DNA from: Armatimonadota bacterium
GTDB taxonomy: Bacteria > Armatimonadota > UBA5829 > DSUL01
Assembly (NCBI GenBank): GCA_052033935.1
Contig: JBPOJE010000073.1
Coordinates: 2,159-66,158 of the forward strand
Direction: 5' to 3'
Length of the DNA: 64,000 bases
How positions within the stretch are numbered: position 1 is the stretch's first letter; each line of letters begins with the position of its first letter. Below the pieces are notes generated by a model. It searched no databases. It saw only the letters and a program-made list of their open reading frames with translations, and was not told where the DNA came from. A program made the position numbers and the translations under genes. Shown here in pieces: positions 14,729 through 64,000 of the stretch.

Positions 14729-14729
14729 G

Positions 14730-14918
14730 GAGCGGCTCTACACCAACCCGAAGCAGCCGTTCGGCCAGACCGAGGCCGACTTCGCCATCATCGTCGTTCC
14801 CCCAGCGTTTCATGAAAAGATGGTGGATATGGCTGTCGAACACGGCGGCCATATTCTCTCCGGGAAGCCGATCGCTGATTCGGTGGAGGCCTGCTGCCGC
14901 ATTTGTTGCCGCGGGTGA
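14730..14918 (+). pseudogene. relic fragment of a Gfo/Idh/MocA-family oxidoreductase (internal ~60-aa Rossmann segment only)
   Basis: Translation ERLYTNPKQPFGQTEADFAIIVVPPAFHEKMVDMAVEHGGHILSGKPIADSVEACCRICCRG* matches the conserved D-A-V-x-I-x-T-P...H.......G-K-H-V-L-x-E-K-P-[IML]-A region of Gfo/Idh/MocA enzymes. It has no N-terminal GxGxxG or C-terminal domain, and lies in the serC-FDP intergenic gap. Confidence 0.5.
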
Positions 14919-15017
14919 TTCCACTTGCGGACATGGGGTATATTCCAGAGGATTAACATTCTGCCCGCGCTCAGGAGGGAGCCGGGCGGGTTTTTGACAG
15001 GCGCTAACGATAACACG

Positions 15018-16196: not shown

Positions 16197-16278
16197 AAGT
16201 GGGGGCACACGGACCGGCGGCCTGTCAGCCGTCACAGCGCCCCTGACCCCGGGCAATCCACGGGAAAGGGCATCAGCA

Positions 16279-17948: not shown

Positions 17949-17985
17949 CACCAGACCCGGCGCTGTTGTTGTCCGGCCGGGTTCG

Positions 17986-19495
17986 TCAGTGGGAGTCCTG
18001 AAAAACGGAGTAAGACTCGCCGGGGCCGACAGGTGCCAGCCTGATGTCCTTCTCGCAGACCCAGCCCGCGCCTTCGGCAACCTCCACCTTCCACCAATGT
18101 CCGCCCAGCCCCAGGATGCCGTTCAGCCCGTGGGCGGATACTCTGCCAGCGGAACCTGCCTCGGCTGTTGCTGCCGCCGCATAGTTCATGCCGGGTCCAA
18201 GCCGCAGTTCCACAGCGTTCTTGAGCGCGATTCGCACGCTTTGCGCGAGTCGGTGGCTGCGGACCTCCGGAAGCAGATTGACCATGACGCTGCCGTTCGC
18301 GACCGGGCGCTCCGGGCCGTCCGAAGTCTTGTTGACCACCTTCCCGTTGATCCACAGGGTCGAGGAGCCGCCGCCGTCCTGGTTCGTGCCCCATGTGGCC
18401 TTTAGCTCGTCCCGGCAGAACGCGCCAAGCTCGGCCATGTTCATCCCCACGCTCACGCCCGGGTCGCGCCCGTCGCAGACGATGAAGAACACGTAGTGGG
18501 CGTTGTATGCGATGGCGGTGCGGGGGGTGCGGATGAGCAGGCCCTTGTTGTCCGTCTCCACAATCCGGCCGTCGCGCAGAAAGGTGAAGTTGCCGCCCAC
18601 GCACGAGTATGACCGCCGCCAGTCGAGCGGACGCCGCGTTTCGCAGTCCTTCTCCCAAGTGCTCAGAACCTGCGAAAACGTGACTCTGCCTCCGGGCGAG
18701 GCTGCTTTCGCGAGCGCATCGGCGTCGCGTCCCTCGGCCGAGAGCACCACGCAGTCGAACGGGATGGGTGTGGAGCCTTTGCCGCTGCGGACATCGAGCA
18801 CGGTTCCCCGCGCGGCTCTAGGCCGGGCACCGTGAGGCCGACCGGGCCGTTCACCTGCACGAGCACTTCCACGCCGTTGCCCGAAGTCATCGTCGTGGCG
18901 TCGAAGTGGGGAGTGTAGAGCACGAGTTCGTTTGTCTGGCGGGGTTCGTTGACGCGGCTGATCCCCAGTTCCGGGCCGCCGTCACACCGAACCGCGCGGC
19001 CTGCTCCTCGCGCTTGTGGCTCACGCAGTCGCCGATGAACGTCTCCCTGTCCAGCGTCCACACGAATCCGCTCATGCCGCCATACTCGAAGAACCGGTGC
19101 GCGTACCACCCGCCAAGAATCTGCCCGCCCGTCTGAACGCCGGTGCGTGGGTTGAAGAAGTCGCCGTTGATGGCGGCGACGGCCTTGTTTCGCCGCTTCC
19201 AGCGTCCGCCCCAGGTATTGATCGCGCCGTCGTAGCGCTTCACCTGGTCGCGCACGGTCTCGCGCGCGCCGGACACCGTGCCGCCCGCCACCATGCTGTC
19301 GATCGTGCAGTTCGGATTCGCCCGGTCCATCCGCACGACGAACACGTTGTTCGGGTGCGGCAGGGTGAACTTCTGATACTCGAAGCCGTCGCCTACCGGC
19401 GTCCACGCAAGGGCGCGGCCGTCGGCGATGGCCAGCGCGGCGAAGAGCCCGAGCGCCCACCTCAGACGAGACGAAGGAGACTTCCAGCCATTCAT
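17986..19495 (-). pseudogene. phosphodiester glycosidase (DUF2233 / NAGPA-like) family secreted protein, interrupted by two frameshifts as assembled
   Basis: N-terminal ORF 18887..19495 has a signal peptide plus AINGDFF...GMSGFVWTLDRE. The middle segment (...CDGGPELGISRVNEPRQTNELVLYTPHFDATTMTSGNGVEVLVQVNGP) is in a second frame. The C-terminal ORF 17986..18801 (YNAHYVFFIVCDGR...NQDGGGSSTLWINGKVVN) is in a third. Shifts are near 18990 and near 18805 (at a GGGG run). Confidence 0.65.
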
Positions 19496-34304: not shown

Positions 34305-36155
34305 CTAGTTGAGCGTGACAATGTCGGCCGCGGAGCGGACTCTCAGCCGTCTCTGTACCTTGCCCGCGATGGTGGCGGTGGAGATGATGCCCGTCACTTG
34401 CACAGGGCGGCCCACGGCCGGAGCGCTCCAGCCGGACAGGCCTGACACATCCACCCGCAGCCCTGTGTAGCCGTAGCCGTCAACGAGCGTGCTCCCGTCG
34501 TCAATGTACAGGTAAAAGCCGCTGATCGAGGCCTTCACCCTGCCCCACGTCCGCACAAGCAGTCCGATGTTGTTGAGTCCCACTCCCCCCTGCACGCCCG
34601 GAGTGTAAGTGCCGAGCGCCTCACCGCCCAGCCGCTCGTTCGACAGCCCGAGCGGCACGGGCAGACTTCCGGTTCCGGACACAGTAACGCTCGACGCCGA
34701 AATCTCCCGTTCGCCGTTGAGCATGCTGAGCGTGCCGACGACGTTTACCCTGTCGCCAACCGCAACAATCGCGCCGCTGTTGACTTTGATTGCCGCCGAT
34801 CGGTCGTCTTCAGAAACGTAAAACGCGCCGGAAAACACGGATGTTACTGTCTTGCCGGACAGGACAACGGCCGTCCCGTTCGGCTCAAGGCGCGCATCGC
34901 CGATTCGCGGAGACGAACCATCGGGGCCGTAGTGAACGGCCACTGGCGGCGAGACCGACTTAAGGCGGTTGCTGGAGGCATCGGTGGCTCGCGCTATGAT
35001 CGTGTGGACGCCGATAGCTTGCCCGGCCGGATCCCAGGTGAAGCTGTATGGCGCGGCGGTATCTGTCCAGAGAAGCTGGCCGTCCACATAGAACTCGACA
35101 TTGTAAATGCCGCTCGCGTCCGATGCGTCCGCCGTCACCGTAACAGGCCCTGTGACGAGTGCTCCCGCAGCTGGAGCGGTGACCGAGACGGCCGGTGGGG
35201 TCAGGTCCACGGCGTGGATGTTGATGGTGGCATAGACGGCGCGGTGATCGCTGCCGAAGTGCGAGCTGCGGGTGGGGTTGAAGGCGAACCCTCCCGGCTG
35301 CTTGACGCCCGAGTCGCGGTCCCACCAGATATAGTCCAGCCGCTTGCCGAACAAGTCCATCATCGTCTGCCCGCTGAACGAGTTGTGTGTGTGCTGGCTG
35401 CTGGGGTCGGTGAATTCGATGTCTATCTCGTTCCAGGTGGACGTGCCTGTATCGGTGTTGAGATCGTTGGTGATAATGCGCGCGGTTCCGGGGAATCCCG
35501 ACATGCCGGGCGAGCCCGTCTGTCCGTTGACGATCCACTCCTTCAGCCGGATGGCTTCTTGGCGGCGTTCTTCCTCGGTCACTTCGTGTCCGTTGAGGAT
35601 CGCCCCGCCCCAGAGCAGCTTGCCCGTAAACAGCCCGAACGCTTCGTCCGTGCCGAGCTTCCGGAATAGCCTGCCGGCGTACTTGAGCACGTAGCCGTTG
35701 TCTATTGTCTCCAGCACCTTCTCGCCGAGATACCACTCGCTGAGCCGGTGCTCCACGAGACCCGTTCTCCAGAAGAAGCCGATGCCGCTTGTGTTGTTGA
35801 CGCCCTGCGGGGTGCGCGAGCTTGCCCAATCCGCCCCGGTGTACTGCTCCAAGAACTGCTCGACCTTCACGCGGTCGGTCTCGCTGAGGAGTTCCTGCAT
35901 CCCGATGACGGCGATGGGAGGATGTGTTGATCCCGAAGGGTTGATGCTGGCCACCCACTGCGCGAAACGCTTCGCGGTATCGTAGGTGACGGCGGAGGTG
36001 TCCTGCTCGGTGTAGCGCCCGCCGGAGTAGATGTTGCACTGGCAGACGGTGATGGTTCCGGCGCATGCAGGAATGAAAACCGTGAGCGCAAGAAAAGCAG
36101 CGCAAATCAACCAGTGATGAAGTTTGTGCATTGCGGCGAGCGAGACGACAGGCAA
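34305..36155 (-). CDS. secreted endonuclease/exonuclease/phosphatase (EEP) family hydrolase with Ig-like domain and recurrent C-terminal module
   Basis: Signal MHKLHHWLICAAFLALTVFIPACAG. RLDYIWWD...GSDHRAV is the EEP C-terminal catalytic motif. APYSFTWDPAG is Ig-like. The C-terminal FYLYIDDGS...GLRV...VQVTG module is shared with other secreted proteins. Confidence 0.65.
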   Translation of the reverse strand: MPVVSLAAMHKLHHWLICAAFLALTVFIPACAGTITVCQCNIYSGGRYTEQDTSAVTYDTAKRFAQWVASINPSGSTHPPIAVIGMQELLSETDRVKVEQFLEQYTGADWASSRTPQGVNNTSGIGFFWRTGLVEHRLSEWYLGEKVLETIDNGYVLKYAGRLFRKLGTDEAFGLFTGKLLWGGAILNGHEVTEEERRQEAIRLKEWIVNGQTGSPGMSGFPGTARIITNDLNTDTGTSTWNEIDIEFTDPSSQHTHNSFSGQTMMDLFGKRLDYIWWDRDSGVKQPGGFAFNPTRSSHFGSDHRAVYATINIHAVDLTPPAVSVTAPAAGALVTGPVTVTADASDASGIYNVEFYVDGQLLWTDTAAPYSFTWDPAGQAIGVHTIIARATDASSNRLKSVSPPVAVHYGPDGSSPRIGDARLEPNGTAVVLSGKTVTSVFSGAFYVSEDDRSAAIKVNSGAIVAVGDRVNVVGTLSMLNGEREISASSVTVSGTGSLPVPLGLSNERLGGEALGTYTPGVQGGVGLNNIGLLVRTWGRVKASISGFYLYIDDGSTLVDGYGYTGLRVDVSGLSGWSAPAVGRPVQVTGIISTATIAGKVQRRLRVRSAADIVTLN

Positions 36156-42623: not shown

Positions 42624-43585
42624 ATGCTTGGCGCAACGATGAACACCGAGAGGATACACATGCCGCGACTGTGCCTGTTCGCCTTTGCTCTCGTCGTGCT
42701 GGCGGCCGCCGCCCCGGCCTTCACTGAGCCAGCCTACCCGGAGTCGCCGGAGGGCGTGACGCTGATTGCCGATGTGGCTTATCTCGCGCAGGGCCGTGAG
42801 GAGAAGTTGGACATCTACCTGCCTGTGGGGCGCAAGGCCGGCCAGCACTCGCCCGCCATGGTGATGATTCACGGAGGCGGTTGGGCGAGGGGCGACAAGA
42901 CGGGCGCGAGGGAATACGAGACGGGTGCGATTCTGGCGCGGGCGGGCTATGTGGCCGTCAGCATCAACTACCAGATGGCTCCCGGAAGGCGCTGGCCAAC
43001 GAACCTGCTCGATTGCAAGAACGCGGTGCGGTTCCTGCGCGTCAACGCGGAATATTACAGCGTGGACCGGCGCGCATCGGTGTGATGGGCGGTTCGGCGG
43101 GCGGGCATCTGGCGCTGATGACCGCCTACACTACCGGTGCGCCGGGACTCGAACCAGCAAGCCCCTACCCCGGCGTGTCGAGCCGGGTGAGCTGCGTCCT
43201 TGATCTTTACGGCCCCACCAGCCTGCTGACGCGGGAGAAGACCGACGCGAAGGGCAACCTGACGGGGGTCCCTGTGAATACCCTTGGCCTCTTCAGCCCC
43301 ACCCGCCAGCAGGACCCGGGGTTGTGGAGGTTGGCGTCGCCGGTCAGCTACGTGCGGAAGAACTCCCCGCCCACGCTGATTCTGCACGGTCTGGCGGATA
43401 CCACGGTGGACCGCGGTCAGGCCGAAGCGCTTGCGGCGAAGTTGGCGGAGCACGGCGTGGAGCACAGGCTGGTGCTGCTTGAGGGCGTCGGTCACTCGTT
43501 CTACCTGAAGACGTGGAAGAACAAGCCGCTGCCTTTGGACGTCGAGGGCATTGCTCTGGAGTTCTTGGCAAGGCATCTGAAGTGA
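42624..43585 (+). CDS. secreted alpha/beta-hydrolase fold-3 esterase/lipase (HGGG + GxSxG), frameshifted as assembled
   Basis: MPRLCLFAFALVVLAAAAPAFT is the signal. MIHGGGWARGDK is the oxyanion HGGG motif. After ...NAEYYSVD the frame shifts (CC run near 43068) into IGVMGGSAGGHLA (nucleophile) ...LILHGLADTTV (track ORFs 42624..43085 and 42881..43585). Confidence 0.65.
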
Positions 43586-52111: not shown

Positions 52112-52221
52112 AACAGTGCTGTCATTGCGAGGCGGCTCCGGCAGCCGTGGTAATCTGGGGCGAGGGGGGTTGCTTCGCTCCAGAGACCTCGCGATGACGG
52201 ATTGAATGAGGACTAACAAAC

Positions 52222-53070
52222 ATGAACTTCAAGAAAAGCAGCGCGGAGCTGTTCATCCCGGACGGTGCGCCGGTTGACGAGGCCTTCGCGAAAACAACCG
52301 ACCTCGGGGTGTGTGCGCATCAGGACGACCTCGAGATACTCGCGTACCCGGGCATTCTGAAGTGCTTCGGGCAGGACGGGCTGGGCTTCACCGGCGTCTG
52401 CGTGACGAACGGCGCGGGCAGCCCGCGCGACGGGCTCTACGAGAAGTACACGGACGATGAGATGCAGTCCGTGCGCCGCCTGGAGCAGAAGAAGGCGGCG
52501 TATGTCGGCGAGTACAAAGCGATGGCTCTGCTCGACTGGTCGTCCAGCGAAGTCAAGAATGCCGCCATCCGGGGCCCCGTGGAAGACCTGAAAGCCCTGA
52601 TTCTGGCATGCAGACCGAAGACCGTGTGGACGCACAACCTTGCGGACAAGCACGACACCCACGTCGCTTCGGCGCTGCGGCTGATTCAGGCGCTGCGGGA
52701 GGTTCCGGAGGACGCCCGGCCGGAGGCTGTGTACGGGCTCGAAGTGTGGCGCGATCTGGACTGGCTGAACGATGGCGACAAGAAGACGTTCGACGTGAAG
52801 GAGCACGAGAATCTGGCATCGGCGCTTCTGGGCGTGTTCGACTCGCAGATTGCGGGAGGCAAGCGCTACGACCTCGCGACGCTCGGCCGCCGCCGCGCGC
52901 ACTCGACGTATTTCGCATCGCACGGCACCGACAACACGACCCAGCTCTCGTTCGGTATGGACCTGACGCCGCTGGTGAACAACCCGTCGCTCGACGTGGC
53001 GGGGTACGTGGATGGGTTCATCCAGCGATTCTCTGAGGAGATACGGGAGCGAATCGGCAAGTTCTTCTGA
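52222..53070 (+). CDS. PIG-L family deacetylase (LmbE-like)
   Basis: LGVCAHQDDLEIL matches the AHPDDE zinc-binding motif of the PIG-L/LmbE family. Confidence 0.7.
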   Translation: MNFKKSSAELFIPDGAPVDEAFAKTTDLGVCAHQDDLEILAYPGILKCFGQDGLGFTGVCVTNGAGSPRDGLYEKYTDDEMQSVRRLEQKKAAYVGEYKAMALLDWSSSEVKNAAIRGPVEDLKALILACRPKTVWTHNLADKHDTHVASALRLIQALREVPEDARPEAVYGLEVWRDLDWLNDGDKKTFDVKEHENLASALLGVFDSQIAGGKRYDLATLGRRRAHSTYFASHGTDNTTQLSFGMDLTPLVNNPSLDVAGYVDGFIQRFSEEIRERIGKFF

Positions 53071-53137
53071 AGCTCGGCAATCGGGCGTTGGACTTCCCCC
53101 GAAAAAGTGGACACCCTAAGGATGAGTTATCGAAAGG

Positions 53138-53407
53138 GTGTCTGAGAGGATGATGAAGTTCAGCGAGGAGTTCCGGGACGAGTCGGTGCGGCTGGTTCTG
53201 GAGAGCGAGAGGACGGTGGCGGAGGTAGCGCGGGATACTGGAATCAGCGTGTGGACCTTGCGGGGTCGGATCCAGAAGAGGTGCGAGGCCGTCAGGTCGT
53301 CTTTGTCCCAGAGGCGTGAGACCCTTGAGCAGGAGATTCGGTGCCTTCGCCGGGAAGTGTTAGTTCTGCGTCAGGAGCGTGAGATCCTAAAAAAAGCGGC
53401 GGCGTAA
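53138..53407 (+). CDS. IS3 family transposase OrfA (HTH + leucine zipper)
   Basis: MSERMMKFSEEFRDESVRLVLESERTVAEVARDTGISVWTLRGRIQK...LRREVLVLRQEREILKKAAA ends in the A-run frameshift site. Confidence 0.8.
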   Translation: MSERMMKFSEEFRDESVRLVLESERTVAEVARDTGISVWTLRGRIQKRCEAVRSSLSQRRETLEQEIRCLRREVLVLRQEREILKKAAA

Positions 53408-54287
53408 TTCGCGAAGGAGCAGCTGTGAGGTATGCCTTTGTTGCTGTACACAGGAAGGAGTTCCCCCTGAGTCTTCTGTGCCGGGTTCTTGGGGTATCCA
53501 GGAGCGGCTACTTTGCGTGGCGCGGCCGTCCTGAGAGCCGCCGGGAGCGTGAGAACCGGATTCTTCTTGAGCGGATCAAGGCGACCCATAGGTCGGGAAG
53601 GAAGATGTATGGTAGCCCTCGGATTCACCGGAAGCTCGTGTCGGAGGGGGTGCTGTGCGGCCGTGTCCGGGTGGAGCGCTTGATGCGCGTGAATGGGATC
53701 CGTGCGCAACGGAAGCGGCGGTTCGTGGTGACGACGGACTCGGGGCACGGCCTGCCGGTTTCTGAGAACATTCTTGGCCGTGAGTTCGCGGTGGGCGAGC
53801 CGAACCGTGTATGGGCATCGGACATCACTTATGTTCCGACGGATGAGGGCCGGCTGTATCTGGCGGGCGTTCTGGACCTGGGGATGAAGGGAGTAGTATG
53901 GGCGAGAGTCTGGACAGGACACTGGCGATGGATGCCTTGACGATGGCGTATCATCGTCGTAGGCCGGGCGAGGGACTGCTCCATCATTCGGATCGGGGTA
54001 GTCAGTATGCGAACCGGGACTACTAGGCTCTGCTGAGCGCGTATGGGATGCGCTCAAGTATGAGCCGGAAGGGGGACTGCTGGGACAATGCACCGATGGA
54101 GAGCTTCTTCGCGACACTGAAGAAAGAGCTGATCCACGGGCGAAGGTTCCGAACCCGGGAACAGGCCCGGCGAGAGATCTTCGAATACATCGAGGTGTTC
54201 TACAACCGGGAGCGGCTGCACTCCAGCTTGGGGTATGTCTCGCCCGCGGACTACGAACGGCAGCTTGCCGTCAAAGAGGCGGCTTAG
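53389..54287 (+). pseudogene. IS3 family transposase OrfB (DDE integrase core), disrupted by a frameshift (~53905) and an in-frame TAG (54024-54026)
   Basis: The -1 frame from the A7G site gives ...RVWASDITYVPTDEGRLYLAGVLDLGMKGVV. After a shift it continues ...[68 protein letters not shown]...[19 protein letters not shown] (track ORFs 53425..53940 and 54048..54287). Confidence 0.75.
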
Positions 54288-54341
54288 GGTGTCCACGAAA
54301 ACATGGGAGGTCCAATTGTGGTCCGAGAGGAGACCTTCAGG

Positions 54342-55256
54342 ATGAAATGTCTATCAGTCCGCGTGGTGCTTGTTCTTGTGTGGTTGCTTTCGGCTTGCTC
54401 CATAGCCTCAGCAGCCACGGTTCCTGATTGGTTGGTGAGGCCGGGAACCATCGGGCACGCTCTGTCCCTTAGCCACGCTCTGTCCCTTAGCGATGGATCC
54501 CAAGTATGCCTTCATGTGGTGGTCGTGGACAAGATCCACTTCAGGCAGAAGCCGGTCTATTTCACAGTCCGCGAATGCTTCGACTGGAAGTCGTGCCTGA
54601 TCGTTTACGGACAACCTTCGCCCCTGCTACGGCACGGGCAGACAATAGACATCGAGGGAACCCTGACAACGCTCCCGAACGGGCATAGGGCGATTGTAAG
54701 GCCGAAAGTATCAGGTTATGTGGACAAAGCGGGTAAGCTCCTCTACCACGGACCGCTCATAAAGTGGCCTTGGTCTCGGACGGAATGGGAGTGGAAGACC
54801 GACCTCACCGTTGTGGAAGCAGTTGACCAGGCTTCCTATACGCTTTCGGATACCGGGACTCCTCCTGATGAGCCGATTACTAACTCCACTTCCGGCCCGG
54901 TCTTCTGTGCGACAATCGCCGATGCGCGAGCACAGTATAGCCCAACCGAGCGGGTGCTTGTGGAGCTTCAGTGCAGGCCGCTTGAGAATCCGGTTTCAGG
55001 CTCTTTCACGTTGAAAGAGGACGGTGGCGCGGATAGCATTACCATCTACTACACGGGTTCCGTAGCGGCTTCCGACAGGATTAACAAGCTCGTCGGTGCC
55101 ATACAGAGAGACGCTGGAACCAACTATTGGATTGAGGTGGACTCCGGCCCAACTGGCAATCGCAAGATCCTATTGGAAGCGTACATACCGCTACAAGCGG
55201 AACCATCGCATGGGCAAAGACATTTGCGGACACCACTACATTGCCTGCGCCACTGA
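54342..55256 (+). CDS. hypothetical secreted protein (lower-GC island)
   Basis: Signal MKCLSVRVVLVLVWLLSACSIASA. It contains an 18-bp perfect tandem duplication (HALSLSHALSLS). It is possibly the N-terminal part of one larger gene continuing in 55241..57121. Confidence 0.5.
   Translation: MKCLSVRVVLVLVWLLSACSIASAATVPDWLVRPGTIGHALSLSHALSLSDGSQVCLHVVVVDKIHFRQKPVYFTVRECFDWKSCLIVYGQPSPLLRHGQTIDIEGTLTTLPNGHRAIVRPKVSGYVDKAGKLLYHGPLIKWPWSRTEWEWKTDLTVVEAVDQASYTLSDTGTPPDEPITNSTSGPVFCATIADARAQYSPTERVLVELQCRPLENPVSGSFTLKEDGGADSITIYYTGSVAASDRINKLVGAIQRDAGTNYWIEVDSGPTGNRKILLEAYIPLQAEPSHGQRHLRTPLHCLRH
54456..54491 (+). repeat. perfect 18-bp tandem duplication (2 copies) inside coding sequence
   Basis: CACGCTCTGTCCCTTAGC at 54456-54473 is repeated exactly at 54474-54491. 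Confidence 0.9.
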
Positions 55257-57121
55257 GCGGAAAAGTAGTATCGCGCACGTTCCCTTGGCTCGGTTACTTC
55301 TACATTCTGGGGATGGCATCGTTCGTGGCCACGGGTGACACTGTCGATGTGGAAGGGGAGTTGGCGACAGACGATGGGGAGCGCGTAGTCGACGCCTCGT
55401 CCACTACGCTTGTTGATATTGCGTCCGTCGCGTCGGTGGGCTTGAATGGCCGTTCGTTGGCAGGTGGGAATTTCAATGTGTTCACCCCCGGAGCCCACGG
55501 TGCGTATGGCCTGAACAATGTTGGTTTGCTTGTTGGTGTTTGGGGCAGAGTGACCGCTGTCGGCTCCGACTATTTCTACCTTGATGACGGCTCTAATTGC
55601 GACGATGGTTCCGGGTCTGGCGGGGTGAGAGTTGTCAACGTGTCTGGTTATATGCCAGGTGCCGATGACTACGTTGCCGTAACAGGCGTCTCAGGTCTTG
55701 CCACGTATGACACTGATCTTGCCAGAACTGTCCGGTTAGCCCGCACCGTCGATCTTTCCGGTATCTGCCCGACTCTTCCGCCGGCTAACTTGACCGTTGC
55801 TCCAACGGGCAGCGGGAAGCTCACTCTATACTGGAGCGGTGTGTGCGGAGCGACAGGCTATAACGTCTATCGAGGCACGATTTCCGGTGGTGAAAACTAC
55901 TATACGCCTGTCAATGGTGGAACTCCGGTAACCACAGAGAGCTACTCCGGTAGTGGTGTCTATACCTATACGGATACCGCGCTGACCGACGGAGTCGAGT
56001 ATTTCTACACGGTAAAGGCTGTGGGTGGGTGTGGCGAGAGTCAAGCGTCGGAAGAGGACAGCTGCATTCCTGATCCAAACGGTGCGCCGTGGGATACTGG
56101 TGATGTTGCAGCAATCTTGGCCTCCATCAGGAATTCGTTCCCCGGGGTTTCAATACCATACGGCTGCATCCGGGCACGAGGGCCGGACGGAAGAGATTAT
56201 CTGGACGGGATTAGCAGTCCAATCATACCTGACGTCACAATCGATCCCACGACGAGAGATGTAGTCTTTTCCGACGGAACCAGAATTGCAGCACCGAATG
56301 ATATTGCCGACATTGACTCATACACGCTTGGGTCAATGCAGATCCTTACAACGATCGAACCGAGAATAAAGAACGCCCAATCCGGGCCATTCAGAAAGGT
56401 CTACACTCACCATAACTATCGTGGAGTAAAAGGTCGTTTCCGGCTTCCTGACTCGAGTGTCGGCATCAGAGTCACGCCTTACACGTACCCTTCCACCGGA
56501 AAGAGCACCAAGGACATACCCTATGTGTATCTTGGCGGGCTTGGCAATCGCTACACCGCCGTTGATGCGGGGCTGTACTGGGGGCCAACGGCTAACGACC
56601 CGCAAAGCCGTTGGAGAATGTTTGGCAAGATCAAGAACTCCAAGAGAGACGAGTGGATTAACACGCCTCCAAATGGGATCTTTGACGATAATCAAGATGT
56701 CAACGCTGAGTACATAGCCTCAAGCATAGTTAATGGCCGGGTGCTGCTGAGAATAACACCAGTTGGCGGAGGTCAGACTGGGGTTATCACGATAGACATA
56801 TCGGATTTCGCAAAGACGGGGCAAGGTGTCCACCTGAAGCGTGTCCATTCGATTGCCCAAAACAATCTCATTGGAACAGACAAGGCCAAGGGATACCGAG
56901 AAACGGGGTCATATTTCCAGTCCAGTGCCTGGTTTGATGGCCAGGTAATGGATCAGAATGGAACATACAGCAACTGGGGCACCTCGCAAACACCCTACTC
57001 GACATATCATGGCAGGTTTCCTAACCTCTCCAGCATCGTCAGTTTCCAACTGCAGTTTCCACAGAACCTCTATCCGTCGAAATGTTTCTCAGGTGATCTC
57101 TATGTGCACATCACCCTGTGA
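55241..57121 (+). CDS. secreted fibronectin-type-III domain protein with recurrent FYLDDGS...GVRV module (lower-GC island)
   Basis: ANLTVAPTGSGKLTLYWSGVCGATGYNVYRGTISGG...YTDTALTDGVEYFYTVKAV is an FN3 domain. GLNNVGLLVGVWGRVTAVGSDYFYLDDGSNCDDGSGSGGVRV is the shared module. The track start TTG 55241 has no signal peptide. The frame is open from 55136 and overlaps the upstream ORF end, so a frameshift fusion is possible. Confidence 0.5.
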   Translation: MPAPLSGKVVSRTFPWLGYFYILGMASFVATGDTVDVEGELATDDGERVVDASSTTLVDIASVASVGLNGRSLAGGNFNVFTPGAHGAYGLNNVGLLVGVWGRVTAVGSDYFYLDDGSNCDDGSGSGGVRVVNVSGYMPGADDYVAVTGVSGLATYDTDLARTVRLARTVDLSGICPTLPPANLTVAPTGSGKLTLYWSGVCGATGYNVYRGTISGGENYYTPVNGGTPVTTESYSGSGVYTYTDTALTDGVEYFYTVKAVGGCGESQASEEDSCIPDPNGAPWDTGDVAAILASIRNSFPGVSIPYGCIRARGPDGRDYLDGISSPIIPDVTIDPTTRDVVFSDGTRIAAPNDIADIDSYTLGSMQILTTIEPRIKNAQSGPFRKVYTHHNYRGVKGRFRLPDSSVGIRVTPYTYPSTGKSTKDIPYVYLGGLGNRYTAVDAGLYWGPTANDPQSRWRMFGKIKNSKRDEWINTPPNGIFDDNQDVNAEYIASSIVNGRVLLRITPVGGGQTGVITIDISDFAKTGQGVHLKRVHSIAQNNLIGTDKAKGYRETGSYFQSSAWFDGQVMDQNGTYSNWGTSQTPYSTYHGRFPNLSSIVSFQLQFPQNLYPSKCFSGDLYVHITL

Positions 57122-57137
57122 TAGGATTGCTGCATCC

Positions 57138-58262
57138 ATGATACTGCTTTCTGCTCTTGCTGCTGCCAGCGTTGCGCACGCCCTGGATTTCCCATCATCC
57201 GCCGTCGTATACTCGACGGCGGCGACGGCCAGAAAACCTTCGCGACTCATAGTCTGCACATACCCGGGGGGGGTGTCAACAGAGGTCAAGATGAAGCAGG
57301 CTGAAGGAGCGCGAATGGGAGATGACATCCGAGCCCCCGTGTTCTCTCCCAACGGCAAAACCGTGTTAGTCACTGCAAACCGCACAAGCGCAGATAGGAA
57401 AACAACCGTGAGCCCCGATTCTACACCGGGTCTTGACCTATGGACCGTTGATTTACAGAGATCGACGGCTGCGCCGCTGACTCACGATGCTTGCGGATAC
57501 GAAAACTACTCCTGGTCGCCAGACGGGAATTACATCTGCTCGATCTCTTGCAACGGCGTTCAGGACGAGCACCCGATGGCTGACACTGGCACAACCGCAT
57601 TCCTCTACCTGTGGAACGCGCACAAACCAGTTAAGAAGCTGATCGGCCTCGAGGCTGTCGATTATGGATGGTCAAGTGACAGCAGGAGAGTATATCACAC
57701 TGGTAGCGCATATAGCGTCAAATTGCCTCATGACAGGAGAGCAAGCTTTATATACGCGGATATCCAACAGGGCAGATCTTTCCTCTACTTCAGTTCAGAT
57801 AATGACTTGTATTCGGGCACATGGTCTTCCAACGGCAAGCTGTTGGCCTACTGCGAGTCTAGCGAGACGGGCTATGGCATCAGCATTCTGCGCAAGGGAG
57901 AGAAGAATCCACGTCGATTCCTGAACACCGAGTTGCCTTTGCATCCGTGGTGGTCGCCTGACGGCAGGAAAGTTGCCTTCTTGGAGAGTGTTCCACATCA
58001 AGAAGGAGGCGAATACCTCAACAAGCTGCGAATCCTGGACGTAGTATCAGGAAAGACTACGGACCTGTGGTCGGTACGCGGCGAAGCAACCATTCTCGGG
58101 TGGACGAGGGACAGCCAATGGGTCGTGGCCAGTCGCTTCCAGTCCCTTGCACCGGACTGGCTAGGGGAAGTTGTTGCATGCTGTATCGGCAGACCGGAAT
58201 TGACTGTGACGTTGTGCTCGCCTGTGGAGAGAGTCACTGCCTTTGACTGGATCCAGCGATAG
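57138..58262 (+). CDS. TolB-like WD40/PD40 beta-propeller repeat protein, secreted (lower-GC island)
   Basis: Signal MILLSALAAASVAHA. PD40 repeats are FSPNGKTV, WSPDGNYI, WSSDSRRVY, WSSNGKLLAY, WSPDGRKVAF. An alternative start is ATG 57102. Confidence 0.65.
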   Translation: MILLSALAAASVAHALDFPSSAVVYSTAATARKPSRLIVCTYPGGVSTEVKMKQAEGARMGDDIRAPVFSPNGKTVLVTANRTSADRKTTVSPDSTPGLDLWTVDLQRSTAAPLTHDACGYENYSWSPDGNYICSISCNGVQDEHPMADTGTTAFLYLWNAHKPVKKLIGLEAVDYGWSSDSRRVYHTGSAYSVKLPHDRRASFIYADIQQGRSFLYFSSDNDLYSGTWSSNGKLLAYCESSETGYGISILRKGEKNPRRFLNTELPLHPWWSPDGRKVAFLESVPHQEGGEYLNKLRILDVVSGKTTDLWSVRGEATILGWTRDSQWVVASRFQSLAPDWLGEVVACCIGRPELTVTLCSPVERVTAFDWIQR

Positions 58263-58602
58263 CAGGGCGGTGTGCGCAATTTTGCTGCCAAGCAGGAGCT
58301 TATGGAGACACTTGCCTACCGTGGCGCAAACCCGTGGATTTTGCGCTGCTCGTTCCACAGCATCGGCAACTGCTTCGTCAGCATCGTCAGCGACAGCCCA
58401 CTCGGCTCCTCGCCCATCAGGATCGACTCAACAATGTCCGGCGCAAGAAACGTGAGCCGCAGCAACCGGGCTGCAAACTGGACGGAACCCCTTCAATCCG
58501 GCCGGGCGCGACCGCACGGCTGCCCGGGCGGCGAAAACTTCTCGCTCTCCAGCGCCGTATTATACGCATGTAGGGTAGAATAGAGTGTGCTTCAATCCAC
58601 GT

Positions 58603-58970
58603 GGGGGCGATAGGTCTCGACAGGGAGCTTTGAAGCGCGGTCTGCGAGTCGAGGCGCCGCTGGCCTCGTAAAAAGCGGCAAAAAACATAAACGCGAACAC
58701 TAACAACTATAGCTACGCGCTCGCTGCCTAACTAAAGGGCAGCCGTCCGGCCCTCCTTAGCTGGAGAGGAGGTCACCGGGCGTTGATAAATCCGGCTTGC
58801 TCCGCCTAGGCGTCCACTGGGGGCGGAGGACTCAAAAAGAGGACTGGCTAGAAGGCGCGAGCCCCGCCCGCGGGGATTGCTTTCGGCGAGATAACAAACG
58901 CGGGAAACACTCGTAGAGGGCCGTGCGTTCGGTTTTCTGGACCCGGGTTCGAATCCCGGCGCCTCCACCA
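58603..58970 (+). ncRNA. ssrA: tmRNA (transfer-messenger RNA)
   Basis: 5' GGGGGCG pairs with the 3' CGCCUCC-ACCA acceptor stem. The T-arm GGGTTCGAATCCCGG precedes the CCA end. The internal reading frame GCGAACACTAACAACTATAGCTACGCGCTCGCTGCCTAA encodes the tag peptide ANTNNYSYALAA*. Confidence 0.9.
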
Positions 58971-59219
58971 TTACGGTGAGCACGAGCAACGCCCAGGCGC
59001 CCAGCGCGCTGGAGGCAAGTGAGTATGCACCTTCGCAAGTCGGAAGTTCAGCGCTGGCTGGCGGGCTAGCGAGCAGCCGAAAGAGTAATCCAGCAGGAAC
59101 GTACGCGGTCTCTGATCAGCCGCACCACCGAAGACGCTTGGCAGGCATATCTTGACCTGTCGGAAATCTCGCCGCTCGCGCGCCCGGTTGCCGGTCAGCC
59201 TTCTTATCTGCTGAAGGCG

Positions 59220-59716
59220 ATGCGCCAAGCACGAAACGCCCGCGCCGTGAGCATCCTCGATGCCGCCGAAGTGACCTCATACCTGGACGAGCAACGGGTG
59301 CCGTATGCCGTCATCGGAGGTATGGCCGTGCAGTACTGGGGCGAGGCACGACAGACCGGCGACGTGGATATCGTGGTGCTGGTCCGCCCTGATGAGACCG
59401 CCAACTTCCTCGAAACCGCTGTCCAGAGGTTCAGGCCTCGCATTGATGACGCTGTCGGGCGAGCCGTCTCTATAGACCTTCCGGGAGGACGAGCCATCCG
59501 CATCATCAGCGCAGAAGACCTCATAATCCACAAGTGCATTGCCGGCCGCGAGACATTGAGGATATCGAACGGGTTTTGGTGCGCCAGAGGCTCTCAGTCG
59601 ATCACGACTATATCGCGCAGTGGTTCCAGGGGATTGTAGAGGATCGTGACGTCACGGGGGTGTACAACAGTGCGCTTCAGCAGGCAACGTCGGCGCTGAC
59701 AGGTGAAGACACCTGA
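59220..59716 (+). pseudogene. minimal nucleotidyltransferase (MNT / AbiEii-like) family protein, frameshifted
   Basis: YAVIGGMAVQYWGEARQTGDVDIVV is the hG[GS]...D.D nucleotidyltransferase motif. The frame breaks at ...LIIHKCIAGRE| and continues in another frame as PRDIEDIERVLVRQRLSVDHDYIAQWF (track ORFs 59220..59639 and 59534..59716). Confidence 0.55.
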
Positions 59717-60047
59717 TCCCGACGTTTCAGATGCGTTGGCAAGTCATCGGGCAGTGTGCGCAAACCTCCTGGCCGGGCTGCCAGAACGATCAGATTGCCT
59801 CGATTTAGGTTCCGGGAACAAGACTCTCGAAACACCACGATTCCCGCGAAGTTCGTTCTCTTTCACATTTCGTGCACACACCAGCCGCACAGGCCGGAAT
59901 GGCACGGTTCTTGCATCTCCATTTGTGTTATGCCACGGCGGCCACCTCATTCCGGCGAGTCCGCGAGGAGGAATCCCTTTGTCAAGTGGACGATGATGGC
60001 GCGTGAGACAGGCAGGAAATCCGGCGGCGCTGCGCCAAATGGTTGCT

Positions 60048-60947
60048 ATGTCCAAAACAATCAAGCTTGCTTCAGTCTTCCTGATAGCCTGCCAGATGGC
60101 GGCGGCCGCCGCCCCGGGAGGAAAAGAGATGGACACCGTACGAGATCGTCTCTGGGTCTGGTGCCACCAGGCCGGCAGCAACAACGGAATGTTCGGGGTG
60201 CCGGGAGAATCGAGGATGACCCCGGCGGAAGCTGCCTTCTATCTGGACGTTCCGAATGCGCTGATGGTCGTGTTCCAGGGGAAGCCCGAGCCGCCGTTCG
60301 ACAGGCTCGCGGTGTCCATGCGCCCGCTGAAGCGCGTGGTCTGGTCCATCATCGGCGACAGCTCCTCCACACGCAACGACAAAGAGACCGACATTGATGA
60401 GGTGATCTCGCTGGCGGGCAGGTTCCCGAACTTCTCAGGCGGGATGATGGACGACTTCTTTCACCCCGCGGACGAAAAGGGGGCGATCAGCCGCTACGGA
60501 ACCGCCGACATCGCGGGCTTCCGCAAGCGTCTCAACGAAGCGCCGCACAAGCTTGATCTCTGGGTGGTGGTTTACACGCACAATCTGGACCTGCCCATCC
60601 GGCCGTACCTAGACAACTGCGACGTTGTAACGTTCTGGACGTGGAACGCAGCGGATCTGCGCGACCTGACGAAGAACTTCGAGCGCTTCGAAGAGGTTGC
60701 CGGTCCGGCCCGCAAGGTTCTCGGCTGCTACATGTGGGATTTCGGGACCGGCAAGCCGATGCCCCTGTATCTGATGAAGCTCCAGTGCGAAAAGGGCCTG
60801 CAGTGGCTGAAGGAAGGCCGCATCGAGGGGATGATCTTCCTATCGAGCGTCGTCTGTGATCTCGACCTCGAAGCGGTGGAGTGGACACGCAGGTGGATCG
60901 CGGAGGTCGGTGGCCAACCGCTGAAAGCCCCAGCCACCAAAAAATGA
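60048..60947 (+). CDS. hypothetical secreted protein
   Basis: Signal MSKTIKLASVFLIACQMAAAAAPG. No confident family assignment, although the content is TIM-barrel-glycosidase-like. Confidence 0.45.
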   Translation: MSKTIKLASVFLIACQMAAAAAPGGKEMDTVRDRLWVWCHQAGSNNGMFGVPGESRMTPAEAAFYLDVPNALMVVFQGKPEPPFDRLAVSMRPLKRVVWSIIGDSSSTRNDKETDIDEVISLAGRFPNFSGGMMDDFFHPADEKGAISRYGTADIAGFRKRLNEAPHKLDLWVVVYTHNLDLPIRPYLDNCDVVTFWTWNAADLRDLTKNFERFEEVAGPARKVLGCYMWDFGTGKPMPLYLMKLQCEKGLQWLKEGRIEGMIFLSSVVCDLDLEAVEWTRRWIAEVGGQPLKAPATKK

Positions 60948-60966
60948 GGGCGCGAGGAGCCTCGCA

Positions 60967-62256
60967 ATGAAGTTTGCTCTGAAATCGCTGTCTGTCGTGC
61001 TCGCCGGGCTGCTGTTTGCTCCGGCGTGCATGGGGGCCGCCCGTCCAGAGCTTGTTCGCGAAGTGCTGGAGGGCAAGCGGCACGAAGCCCGCGCGTCGTG
61101 GTGGGGCTTCGACGCGGAGGACTCCACAGACTGCCTGCAGCAGGCCATCAACTCCAAGGTCAAGAGGCTGATTATTGACCGTCAGAAATCTCCCTGGATG
61201 ACGCGGCCGCTGACGGGGGTGAGCAACCAGGAGATCGTCCTGCAGAAGGGAACAGAACTGGCAGCCCGGAAAGGCGCGTTCAAGCGCAAAGGCGACTGTC
61301 TGCTCACGTTTCCCGGATGCGAGAACATCATTATCCGGGGCAAGAAGAAGGATCGCGGCAAGACGGCGCGCATTCGCATGCGCAAGGAGGACTATCAGTC
61401 CGAGGCATACGAACAATCGGAGTGGCGGCACGGACTGAGCTTCTCCGCATGCCGAAACGTGCTGATACAGGACCTCGCGATCGAGCAGACCGGGGGCGAC
61501 GCCATCTATCTGGGCACCTCGCCCGGACGGGGCCCCAACCGCAACGTCGTCATCCGGCGCGTGGACTGCAACGGCAACCACCGGCAGGGCATCAGCGTCA
61601 TCAGCGCCCAGGACATCCTGATCGAGGACTGCCTCCTTCGCAACACCCGCGGAACGGCCCCGGAGGCCGGCATTGACTTCGAGCCGAACACGCCCGGCGA
61701 GTCGCTTGTCCGCTGCGTGGTGCGCAACTGCGTGGCGGAGAACAACGCAGGAACTGGCTATCAGATCTGCCCGCAGACCATGAATAGCTCGTCGCCGCTG
61801 ATCTCGATTGACATCGAGAACTGCGTCTCGCGCGGCAATATGCAGCACGGTGTCCACCTCTGCAGCGCTCCGAAGGATGCCCCGCGCGGGCTGCTGAGGA
61901 TTTCACGGTTCACCTCCGACCGCGACCGGATGGCCGGGCTTTCGGTGCAGTTCAACCCATGGGATGGGGTGCGCGTCGAGATGAAGGACTCGGAGCTTCG
62001 CGACTGCGCGCGCGACGACACGTTCTTCCCGCCGATCTACGTGCAGGGGTCCGGTGCCGACAGGGGGCCGGCGGGCAACATCCACTTCACGCGCGTCACA
62101 GTCCGGGACGACGTGGATCGTCCATTCTTCCGGATTCGAGTCAACAGCGAGAGCGGCGTGAAGGCGATCACGGGCAAGATTACGCTCAAGCGCCGGGGTG
62201 CGACAGAGGCCATCAAGCTCGACGAAGCACGGCTGCGGGAGTTCTCACGTGGGTAG
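60967..62256 (+). CDS. secreted right-handed parallel beta-helix (pectate-lyase-fold) repeat protein
   Basis: Signal MKFALKSLSVVLAGLLFAPACMG. PbH1-like repeats are VDCNGNHRQGISVISAQDILIED, NCVAENNAGTGYQI and VSRGNMQHGVHL. Confidence 0.55.
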   Translation: MKFALKSLSVVLAGLLFAPACMGAARPELVREVLEGKRHEARASWWGFDAEDSTDCLQQAINSKVKRLIIDRQKSPWMTRPLTGVSNQEIVLQKGTELAARKGAFKRKGDCLLTFPGCENIIIRGKKKDRGKTARIRMRKEDYQSEAYEQSEWRHGLSFSACRNVLIQDLAIEQTGGDAIYLGTSPGRGPNRNVVIRRVDCNGNHRQGISVISAQDILIEDCLLRNTRGTAPEAGIDFEPNTPGESLVRCVVRNCVAENNAGTGYQICPQTMNSSSPLISIDIENCVSRGNMQHGVHLCSAPKDAPRGLLRISRFTSDRDRMAGLSVQFNPWDGVRVEMKDSELRDCARDDTFFPPIYVQGSGADRGPAGNIHFTRVTVRDDVDRPFFRIRVNSESGVKAITGKITLKRRGATEAIKLDEARLREFSRG

Positions 62257-62275
62257 AAGACAGCGAAGTAATCCG

Positions 62276-63220
62276 ATGAGCACGGGCGCCATGAGGACAC
62301 TCATCATCGGCGGGACGGGCCACACCGGGCGGTTCCTTGTCCGACAGCTTCTTGACGAGGGCCACCACGTAACCGTCGTATCCTCGGGGCGGACGGCTTT
62401 CGACGAGGAAGCGGCAGGCAGGGCCGATTTCGCCGTGATGCCCTATGAAGAGATGCTTGCGGACGGTCGTTTCGACGCGCTGCTGGCGGAGAAGAAGCCG
62501 GATGCCGTGGTAGACATTCTGCAGCACGATGCGCGCAAGATGCAGCGAGCGTGCGAGACGGCGGAGGTACGCCACCTGGTATTCTGCGGGTCGCTCTGGA
62601 TGCTGGGGCGCCCGAAGGTTGTGCCGACCCCCGAGGTCAGGCAGACCGAGTGCCCATTCGACGGCTACAGTCAGCGATACGAGCAGTTGAACGAGGCTCT
62701 TGGCAAATCGCGGGTGGACGGGCTTGCGGTAAGCGCTGTGCTGCCGCCCAGCATCTGCGGCCCGGGTAAGGTCCCGCTCGAAGGTCTCGGCGGGCGCTCC
62801 ATCGAAGTCCACCGCGAACACCAGCAGGGAAAGGAAGTGACCCTGCCCTTCCCTGGTACAAACCTCATCGGTCCGTGCGATGCTTGGGACGTCGCCCGCG
62901 GCTTCGCATGCGTGCTCCGGAACCGGGAGGCATCTGCGGGAGAGGCGTTCAACGTGGGATCGGCCTACGCGCTGACGTCGGAGCAGTTCATCAATACGTA
63001 CGCCGCCATCCACGGCACGAAGATTCCCATCCGATACGTCAGTCCCGAAACCTACATCCGCGACGTCTCGCCGGAGATCGGCGCGCACTATCACTTCACC
63101 GAGCACATGTGCCCGGACATCTCGAAGATATCCGAGCGTCTGGGATACAGGCCGGCGCACACGCCCGGAGAGACAATGGCGCGAGCGGTGAGATGGATGA
63201 AGGATGTGAAGCTGCTGTAG
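62276..63220 (+). CDS. NAD-dependent epimerase/dehydratase family (extended SDR) protein
   Basis: MSTGAMRTLIIGGTGHTGRFLVRQLLDEGHHVTVVSSGR is the GxxGxxG Rossmann motif. Start ATG 62276 is preferred over the track start 62198. Confidence 0.75.
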   Translation: MSTGAMRTLIIGGTGHTGRFLVRQLLDEGHHVTVVSSGRTAFDEEAAGRADFAVMPYEEMLADGRFDALLAEKKPDAVVDILQHDARKMQRACETAEVRHLVFCGSLWMLGRPKVVPTPEVRQTECPFDGYSQRYEQLNEALGKSRVDGLAVSAVLPPSICGPGKVPLEGLGGRSIEVHREHQQGKEVTLPFPGTNLIGPCDAWDVARGFACVLRNREASAGEAFNVGSAYALTSEQFINTYAAIHGTKIPIRYVSPETYIRDVSPEIGAHYHFTEHMCPDISKISERLGYRPAHTPGETMARAVRWMKDVKLL

Positions 63221-63364
63221 CCCTGGCGGCGGCATGCAAGCAGCACGATAGCACGGATACCCCTTGACTGCGGCCCGTGCCGGATGATACATTTTAGATT
63301 AGGGAGGTGGGAAGACGACTGATCGGGAGCGGGGCACCGCTCCCACACAAGGAGTACCCGTCAA

Positions 63365-64000
63365 TTGGCTCTGCGAAAGTATCTGACCGTTGCGTTGTTG
63401 TCGGTCGTCCTGACAGTGCTGTCGCTGGGGATGTCCTTCGCCTACGAGTTCTGGTGGCCCACATCTGGCTGGATCAGCAGCATCTGGGGCGAGGACCGGG
63501 GCGATCATTACCATTCCGGCATAGACATCGCCGCCAACAGCGGCACCCCCATCTACGCAGCCTGCAAGGGCACAATCGCCTACCGGGGCTGGTACTCCGG
63601 ATACGGCTACTGCATTGACATCAGGCACGAAGGCAACTGGGTGACGCGCTACGCTCACCAGTCCTCTTTCGCCAGCGGGCTTTCGGTGGGGTCGAGTGTC
63701 GTGCGAGGCCAGGTGATCGGCTACGTCGGCAGCACCGGCAACTCGACGGGGCCGCATCTGCACTTTGAGATTCGCCAGGGGGTGACGTTCGGGTTTACCA
63801 ACTCGTACTACATTCCGGGCAACTACTACAACACTATCACCGCAAAGACGGAGATCGCCCGTACGTACTCAGGCTGCACTTGCACTTCCGCCCCGACGTG
63901 GGCGGCAACGTACCGCGCGCAGTCGTTCCCGTCCTCGATGGAGGCGGGTTCCACGGCTATCGTCTGGGCCGAGTTCAACAACACGGGCACGGGTACCTGG
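63365..64000 (+). CDS. M23 family metallopeptidase (LytM domain), 3' end beyond window
   Basis: The frame is open to the window end. HYHSGIDIAANSGTPIYAACKGTI...GSTGNSTGPHLHFEI are the HxxxD and HxH motifs of M23 peptidases. Putative TTG start 63365 is preceded by AAGGAG (63349-63354) and followed by a TM/signal segment. Not in the ORF track (no stop in window). Confidence 0.65.
   Translation, partial: MALRKYLTVALLSVVLTVLSLGMSFAYEFWWPTSGWISSIWGEDRGDHYHSGIDIAANSGTPIYAACKGTIAYRGWYSGYGYCIDIRHEGNWVTRYAHQSSFASGLSVGSSVVRGQVIGYVGSTGNSTGPHLHFEIRQGVTFGFTNSYYIPGNYYNTITAKTEIARTYSGCTCTSAPTWAATYRAQSFPSSMEAGSTAIVWAEFNNTGTGTW

Follow-up and report, generated by a model that had tools for sequence, protein, structure and literature searches.

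The gene for transfer-messenger RNA (tmRNA), ssrA, of an Armatimonadota bacterium (GenBank assembly GCA_052033935.1, contig JBPOJE010000073.1) is preceded by a block of low guanine-plus-cytosine (GC) content that holds a pair of genes for predicted secreted proteins, one with an FN3 domain and one with PD40 repeats. The block under study occupies positions 54317-58262 of the whole stretch of 64,000 nucleotides (nt) that was analysed, hereafter the window. We propose that it is very probably a horizontally acquired island in the course of decay and, with a probability of about 0.6, that a temperate phage or integrative element with a serine integrase, similar to the Acidithiobacillus phage AcaML1, was acquired horizontally and left the block as its degraded cargo end. 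The block has a foreign composition and is absent from a close relative, its genes can be identified, one of them is marked by lesions, and the pair is recurrently linked to a phage recombination module. From these observations we infer that the pair was cargo of the element, and in what order the events may have taken place. The features concerned are the following, with the evidence for each in brackets.

52222-53070, plus strand: gene for a PIG-L family deacetylase, the last conserved gene on the left (Pfam PF02585; blastn against the relative L013).
53089-54314, plus strand: defective insertion sequence (IS) of the IS3 family (Pfam HTH_Tnp_1, HTH_21 and partial rve; inverted repeats).
54342-57121, plus strand: FN3 gene, a predicted pseudogene for a secreted multi-domain protein of ~926 amino acids (aa) (homologue alignment).
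54456-54473 and 54474-54491, plus strand: exact 18-bp tandem duplication in this gene, encoding HALSLS twice (repeat search and alignment).
55147-55150, plus strand: frameshift site in the same gene, a C-run one base short (GGCCCAACTGG) where homologues encode S-G-P-N-W.
57102-58262, plus strand: gene for a secreted 386-aa beta-propeller of PD40 repeats ('type A'), apparently intact (Pfam PD40, 42 bits).
58316-58511, minus strand: putative 3' remnant of a phage 'site-specific recombinase small subunit' or ParB-HTH-like gene (translation, tblastn, blastn, phrog_14161, AcaML1 Gp2 homologue).
58512-58602, plus strand: right junction (58512-58515), then the native ssrA upstream region (blastn and alignment).
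58603-58970, plus strand: ssrA, a one-piece tmRNA with the tag ANTNNYSYALAA, intact and single-copy in the window (ARAGORN; Rfam RF00023).

The low-GC block is compositionally foreign. Its GC content is 54.4% vs 63.7% (standard deviation 1.2, minimum 61.0) in windows of equal length taken outside 53-60 kb, giving z = -8.1; the whole window has 62.9%, positions 1-53090 have 63.7%, and 300-nt windows in the block go down to 48-58%. The GC-normalised tetranucleotide profile also deviates, with z = +5.5 vs the window's own spread, and GC at third codon positions (GC3) is 57-62% in the reading frames of the block vs 77-85% in the flanking ROK-like, PIG-L, beta-helix and epimerase genes. The deviation in composition and codon usage that characterises genomic islands is therefore present. 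An earlier note on this DNA, made from the letters alone, had described the lower GC and the different codon usage, and the GC and tetranucleotide analysis bears this out, the block not being uniform with the window; the background is about 64%, not the ~66% given there.

The block is also absent from the same site in a relative, another property of genomic islands. GTDB genomes were scanned with the ROK-like protein, whose gene lies just upstream, which led to JAXGLP010000002.1 of the Armatimonadota metagenome-assembled genome AnMBR.bin211 (locus L013), where this protein has 94% aa identity and the flanks are about 90% identical in nt. Positions 11606-12558 of L013 match window 52121-53073 at 91% (blastn). 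Synteny runs through the PIG-L gene to 53073, 3 nt past its stop, and resumes at 58516, and the alignment thus delimits the island interval at 53074-58515. L013 has 1.57 kb between the PIG-L gene and ssrA, of host GC and coding for two toxin-antitoxin pairs of the MNT/HEPN type; in the same interval the window has 5.4 kb, made up of the IS3 element, the FN3 pseudogene, the PD40 gene and the antisense fragment. Because the two genomes differ there, the interval between the PIG-L gene and ssrA appears to be strain-variable, the version in the window being the foreign one. The island absence, which agrees with the foreign island of the earlier note, is a comparison with one close relative, L013.

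The link with a phage comes from about 196 nt of antisense sequence between the PD40 gene and ssrA. The minus strand at 58319-58492 encodes 58 residues and then a stop (...FAARLLRLTFLAPDIVESILMGEEPSGLSLTMLTKQLPMLWNEQRK...), and the remnant, with 62% GC, holds the last ~58-65 codons and the stop of its gene; another stop codon lies upstream of the retained C-terminal codons. It matches the C-terminus of a 137-aa protein encoded after a DUF2924 gene and a large serine recombinase in three other loci (L009, L137 and L255/L176). Identity is 72-76% to L009, L103 and L105; compared with the small-subunit gene in the complete module of L137, it is about 70% over 34 residues (tblastn). The family of the remnant corresponds to phrog_14161 ('recombinase') and that of the DUF2924 partner to phrog_11806. 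Antisense open reading frame (ORF) fragments had been taken earlier for remnants of mobile DNA, and this view is upheld, the fragment being the small-subunit gene end of a recombinase module. DNA homology to the complete small-subunit genes of L137 and L255 extends to 58511 (blastn), and homology to the first ssrA copy of L013 begins at 58516. It follows that the right border, where the block ends 87 nt upstream of ssrA, would be a deletion endpoint inside a phage gene. The retained 3' segment corresponds to 58316-58511 in the window, 3216-3364 in L105 and 3216-3389 in L255, and it is about 77-85% identical in DNA across genomes of 47-63% GC. Both the window and L103/L105 keep the last ~58-65 codons, and a shared recombination site inside the small-subunit gene was considered and rejected, as the breakpoints differ: that of L105 lies at L255 3389/3390, while the homology of the window reaches about L255 3426-3439, roughly 50 nt further into the gene.

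The pair of FN3 and propeller genes is a conserved operon found in about ten different contexts in Armatimonadota metagenomes, several of which place it beside this same module. A complete triad of genes for DUF2924, the large serine recombinase and its small subunit comes immediately after the pair in L137 and L255/L176, in convergent orientation. In L009 the contig ends after the pair with a partial small-subunit gene, and before the pair there is another triad, a complete one. The large serine recombinases of L009, L137 and L255 contain the Resolvase, Recombinase and Zn_ribbon_recom domains, and relatives occur in 474 IMG/VR stretches. The triad of L255 continues into genes for an M15 endolysin, an XRE/ImmA switch, a sigma factor, an exonuclease and a Sak4-like protein. 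The presence of these phage genes beyond the triad indicates that the L255 element is a temperate phage, and L255/L176 is an IMG/VR contig that holds pair and phage together. Loci L103 and L105 are 99.8% identical to L255 over 3.4 kb and have lost everything from inside the small-subunit gene onwards, being joined there to the host gene glnA; they appear to have decayed independently in the way seen in the window. In another lineage of Armatimonadota (L104, 9130-9483, and L108, 9126-9480), about 380 nt lie between the CCA end of ssrA and the start of the FN3 gene, and the genes upstream of ssrA are host genes unrelated between the two loci. The last 9 nt of ssrA (CCTCCACCA) are found at the same border in L103 (9468-9476), preceded by an IS66 element. 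Two other interpretations of this upstream region of L103 were discarded: a cryptic or split tmRNA, for which Rfam in E-value mode returned nothing, leaving just these last 9 nt, and a tandem prophage, the genes being host-like (ABC transporter, PadR regulator) in addition to the IS66 element.

In three of these loci the GC content of the pair is low relative to its surroundings. It lies below the adjacent phage module in L137 (52 vs 61%) and L009 (48 vs 52%) and below the host flanks in L095 (51 vs 59%), the difference from the flanks being 5-8 points in L095 and L009. A GC content lower than that of the phage neighbours is typical of morons. Several FN3-PD40 loci have neighbours of defence type (L010 4880-9677, L011 276-4907, L094 4805-13183 and L256 14364-16865), namely AAA_21/DUF4435, DUF4411, a DEAD/MZB helicase, a DUF4011 helicase with a methyltransferase, and Schlafen/AlbA_2; the pair tends toward defence or mobile islands.

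The best-described relative of the module is that of AcaML1, an inducible prophage integrated in a tmRNA gene with 10-bp repeats (PMC3826726). Its Gp4 (DUF2924), Gp3 (large subunit) and Gp2 (small subunit) form the same module, in the same gene order, at the end of the prophage. Gp2 is annotated as 'site specific recombinase small subunit', and the L137 protein is 44% identical to it over 69% of the query (tblastn); Gp3 is 50% identical to the L137 recombinase. The link with tmRNA can be considered meaningful because the module of the remnant occurs in this tmRNA-gene prophage. The two differ in that AcaML1 has the whole module and a 10-bp ssrA repeat, whereas the window has about 196 nt, no repeat and a position on the 5' side of ssrA; integration at the ssrA 3' end with a repeat of about 10 bp, as in AcaML1, was not seen in the window. 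Moreover, the Armatimonadota elements carry the 4-kb FN3-PD40 operon beyond the small-subunit gene, where AcaML1 has one small gene, Gp1.

The ssrA gene is a known integration hotspot (PMC3146451), and the ssrA islands of Dehalococcoides, with a CcrB-like serine recombinase, DsiB, and a ParB-domain protein (McMurdie et al. 2011, PMC3146451), offer a second comparison. They are likewise of low GC, strain-specific and variable in cargo, with a single-copy ssrA, and their integration module is on the reverse strand at the ssrA-side border, like the remnant in the window; decayed or 'fixed' islands without integration genes have also been described (PMC3146451). The L009 recombinase matches the NCBIfam CcrB model with an E-value of 3e-51, well below the cut-off of the model. 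The Dehalococcoides islands differ in lying downstream of ssrA and in having 20-bp ssrA repeats in tandem arrays (PMC3146451), neither of which is found in the window, and in the content of the module, with DsiA, RecF-like and Mom-like proteins and no DUF2924. The arrangement also resembles a generic cryptic prophage bearing morons, with an accessory operon of lower GC beside the integrase end, a deleted body, an IS and pseudogenisation; it differs from one in that the cargo is without PHROG or NCBIfam match and the window keeps no phage structural, lysis or regulatory gene, which also counts among the points against our reading weighed below.

The FN3 gene is the part of the block in which decay is most visible. 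Three genes for secreted proteins had been counted earlier; we find two, since the 'hypothetical' ORF1 (54342-55256) and the 'FN3' ORF2 (55241-57121) are two halves of one gene split by a 1-nt deletion. Homologues of the FN3 ORF, of 900-973 aa, align to ORF1 as well as to ORF2, and restoring the missing C gives a 926-aa protein colinear with P0002, P0003, P0004 and P0006. Compared with all four homologues, the copy in the window is without 13 conserved codons after ...GYFYI (in-frame, about 55306/55307). The 18-bp tandem duplication at 54456-54491, already reported in the earlier note and exact, is found in no homologue. The gene in the window thus appears to carry three independent lesions. 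The frameshift is not an assembly error of the window, because the same bases are present in an independent short-read Logan contig (L007), base-identical to window 54266-63917 and recorded for 5 samples. The nearest FN3 homologues (72-48% identity) are on contigs of 47-51% GC. Several of the related loci likewise have a fragmented FN3-family gene, among them L137 (77-2921) and L256 (10004-12866), where it is divided into two or three ORFs; this suggests recurrent pseudogenisation, or sequencing errors in those contigs.

In the predicted protein, a signal peptide is followed by beta/OB-like domains, one FN3 domain and a C-terminal ConA-like jelly roll. It has no match in NCBIfam or PHROG, and Pfam gives no family annotation beyond fn3. 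The AlphaFold2 (AF2) model of the whole protein has a predicted local distance difference test score (pLDDT) of 68, and its PDB matches concern the FN3 domain only. An assignment as a glutamic peptidase was unsupported, the family being without an invariant Glu. The central beta domain has a paralogous copy of 39% identity encoded at window 34503-34862 on the minus strand, and it recurs, among the homology matches, in S8 peptidases and other secreted proteins of Armatimonadota. The PD40 gene starts 20 nt before the FN3 gene ends, an arrangement shared with L008, and its product is 57% identical to that of the first propeller gene of L008 (blastp). It had been called TolB-like in the earlier note; the propeller repeats are there, yet TIGR02800 gives 36 bits vs a cut-off of 343, over 70 residues only, and Pfam finds PD40 repeats only, which rejects an identity as TolB. 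Pfam, NCBIfam and PHROGs give the propeller no family-level annotation beyond PD40. Both products are predicted from their sequences to be secreted, the large one joining an FN3 domain to a jelly roll of lectin/glucanase type. Our best guess, made with low confidence, is that they form a glycan-binding complex of the envelope or surface, of the kind that phages carry as conversion genes.

On the left, the block is bordered by the IS3 element, which the earlier note had recognised and which Pfam and the inverted repeats place at 53089-54314. Members of the IS3 family are marked by orfA (HTH) and orfB (rve/DDE) in a -1 frame relation, by terminal repeats of the form TG...CA and by a target duplication of 3-5 bp. 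In this copy orfA (53138-53407) is intact, and orfB has an extra frameshift and an in-frame TAG (three-frame translation). The terminal inverted repeats, TGGAC...GTCCA, are 33 nt long and imperfect, and no target-site duplication is present in the flanks, which read CGT and ATT. The copy therefore appears to be a dead member of the family. It shows a very strong GC skew of +0.25 to +0.35. One copy is found in the window. Six independent short-read Logan contigs stop 29 nt inside its left end (53117), and one begins 49 nt inside its right end (54266); since the assemblies from six samples break inside the ends, several copies in the genome are suggested. The element is separated from the FN3 start codon by 27 nt only. 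The left border would thus be secondary and compatible with IS-mediated deletion or recombination, an event that we infer. A reading of the present borders as integration junctions is unsupported; both appear to be secondary, the left one being formed by the defective IS3, which has no target-site duplication, and the right one by a deletion endpoint inside a phage gene. As claimed in the earlier note, the window holds no integrase; the defective IS3 and the 196-nt small-subunit remnant are its only traces of mobility.

Adjacency to ssrA, a third property of genomic islands, is confirmed by ARAGORN and by RF00023 (183.5 bits for a gathering score of 47, model positions 1-374 of 374), the block lying on the 5' side of the gene. 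For an island this side is atypical. Direct repeats of the attachment (att) type flanking the block were not found in the window. A 16/17 match to the T-arm at 43139-43155 (minus strand) was rejected as an att site, being inside a coding region and followed by unrelated sequence, and is attributed to chance. The same applies to a 21-nt direct repeat, D5 (58491-58511 vs 58590-58610, 76%), which lies within the small-subunit homology and is unconserved in L013. The relative itself has two full-length tmRNA genes within 14126-19290, at 14206-14573 and 18923-19290, differing at 2 nt. The repeat begins at the -10 box and ends at CCA+AT; its two copies enclose a 4.3-kb insert, which encodes an apolipoprotein N-acyltransferase (Lnt) and a secreted protein sharing the central domain of the FN3 family. 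A duplication of the whole gene is unusual for an ssrA-associated insertion and could be an assembly artefact.

Taken together, it can be hypothesised that window 54315-58515 is the surviving end of an inserted temperate phage or integrative element, whose integration module would have comprised DUF2924, the large serine recombinase and the small 'recombinase subunit'. What survived would be a 'moron'-like accessory operon, which in related elements is located between the module and the end of the element, and the last ~60 codons of the small-subunit gene. A deletion may have removed the recombinase, DUF2924 and the phage body, with its endpoint now 87 nt upstream of ssrA. The now-defective IS3 would have replaced the former left side, and the FN3 gene in turn shows decay through the frameshift, the 13-codon deletion and the 18-bp duplication. 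Loss of the upstream ssrA copy from a two-copy state like that of L013 would yield the arrangement in the window, which is speculation.

Several results weigh against a phage as the source of the block. The phage is deduced from about 196 nt and their context; no recombinase or DUF2924 gene was found in the window (tblastn with the L009 recombinase gave no match). Likewise, a search for the duplicated ssrA 3' end expected from the earlier note (blastn-short with the last 60, 40 and 25 nt) found none in the 64-kb window besides the gene. The geometry is noncanonical, ssrA lying upstream of the FN3 gene in L104/L108 and beyond the remnant in the window. In L256/L113, the pair follows the end of a prophage with a tyrosine integrase, which fits a hotspot neighbour as well as cargo. 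No recombinase lies within 10 kb of the pair in L010-L012, L094 and L095, and some of these loci have a host-like GC content (L010 62%, L094 42%), so that the pair is not obligatorily phage-borne. The comparison with L013 covers 21 kb, and the pair could exist elsewhere in that genome. It is possible, if rather doubtful, that the pair is an older accessory island or host locus that happens to occupy an integration hotspot, and that another prophage, once integrated beside it, left the small-subunit fragment as its scar; pair and scar would later have been inherited or transferred together. Such an origin would account for the pair at host GC and without a nearby recombinase in L010/L011/L012 and L094, and for its occurrence beside two types of integrase, the serine triad (L137, L255, L009) and a tyrosine integrase (L256). 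It would also fit the triads that face the pair from both sides in L009 and the position of the pair directly after ssrA, with host genes upstream, in L104/L108. In AcaML1 and many IMG/VR contigs, no more than about 0.8 kb separates the small-subunit gene from the end of the element or contig, which suggests an attP just beyond this gene and points the same way. Against this stand the absence of the pair from the L013 site and its strongly foreign GC3, so that it is no old resident here, as well as the presence of pair and phage on one viral contig (L255/L176). Linked cargo would be expected to lie repeatedly right beside the module in one and the same convergent orientation, as the pair does in 4 independent lineages.

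That the block was ancestral here and lost from the relative, its low GC reflecting amino-acid composition or relaxed selection and no transfer, is unlikely. Both genomes hold lineage-specific DNA between the PIG-L gene and ssrA, the polarity of which is unproven, the pair is 5-8 GC points under its flanks in L095 and L009 too, and the FN3 gene is a pseudogene, all of which this explanation would accommodate. However, the GC gap is greatest at third codon positions (57-62% vs 77-85%), the intact PD40 gene included, tetranucleotide usage deviates independently of GC, and the nearest homologues come from genomes of 47-51% GC; in addition, the block lies between an IS and the remnant of a phage gene, and the alternative DNA of L013 is at host GC. 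The model of the earlier note, with ssrA as the integration hotspot of the island, draws on the adjacency of a gene known as a hotspot (PMC3146451) and on the 4.3-kb insert between the two ssrA copies of L013. It is very improbable for this block, which is on the 5' side of ssrA: the window yielded neither a tyrosine integrase nor a fragment of one, there is no second ssrA 3' end in the 64 kb, and the sole trace of a recombination gene belongs to a serine-recombinase module. Of the foreign island at ssrA with mobile remnants that the note had described, we retain the foreign nature, with which the absence from L013 agrees, the antisense remnant and the tmRNA link; the three genes and the remnants on both sides are given up, and an att repeat and the borders as junctions are equally unsupported.

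The derivation from a serine-integrase phage or integrative element, which we favour, leads to a more tentative proposal. The FN3/jelly-roll and PD40 operon might be an undescribed mobile 'moron' of Armatimonadota, carried by AcaML1-like phages that target tmRNA genes and possibly serving lysogenic conversion or surface modification, with a duplication of the whole ssrA, as in L013, placing the cargo 5' of the gene; we regard this as conceivable rather than probable. At a broader level, the tmRNA locus of this uncultured Armatimonadota lineage behaves as a hotspot for gene flux, where two genomes with about 90% identity differ on both sides of ssrA. A 196-nt antisense scrap can be tied to a defined family of tmRNA-targeting serine-integrase phages, and a conserved two-gene operon for secreted proteins has been identified that travels with such elements and is repeatedly pseudogenised. 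The acquisition and decay of the island are of a well-documented, ordinary kind and leave current concepts unchanged; they offer an entry point to a phage-host system in a phylum from which hardly any phages have been characterised.

On the 3' side of ssrA, two further features were defined by comparison with L013.

59019-59246, plus strand: small partner ORF, with a CAG to TAG change.
59247-59710, plus strand: DUF2204/DUF6036/AbiEii-like nucleotidyltransferase gene, with a 33-codon deletion and a frameshift.

The earlier note had seen in the broken nucleotidyltransferase a sign of mobile DNA on both sides of the island. The broken gene is present; however, both genes are syntenic and intact in L013, and they appear to be decaying residents and not evidence of an insertion. 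Synteny with L013 is lost again about 950 nt downstream of ssrA (window ~59915, L013 20373), and because it breaks on each side, both flanks of ssrA seem to be variable. Past this second break, the window encodes a 314-aa secreted protein and L013 a PEP-CTERM protein.

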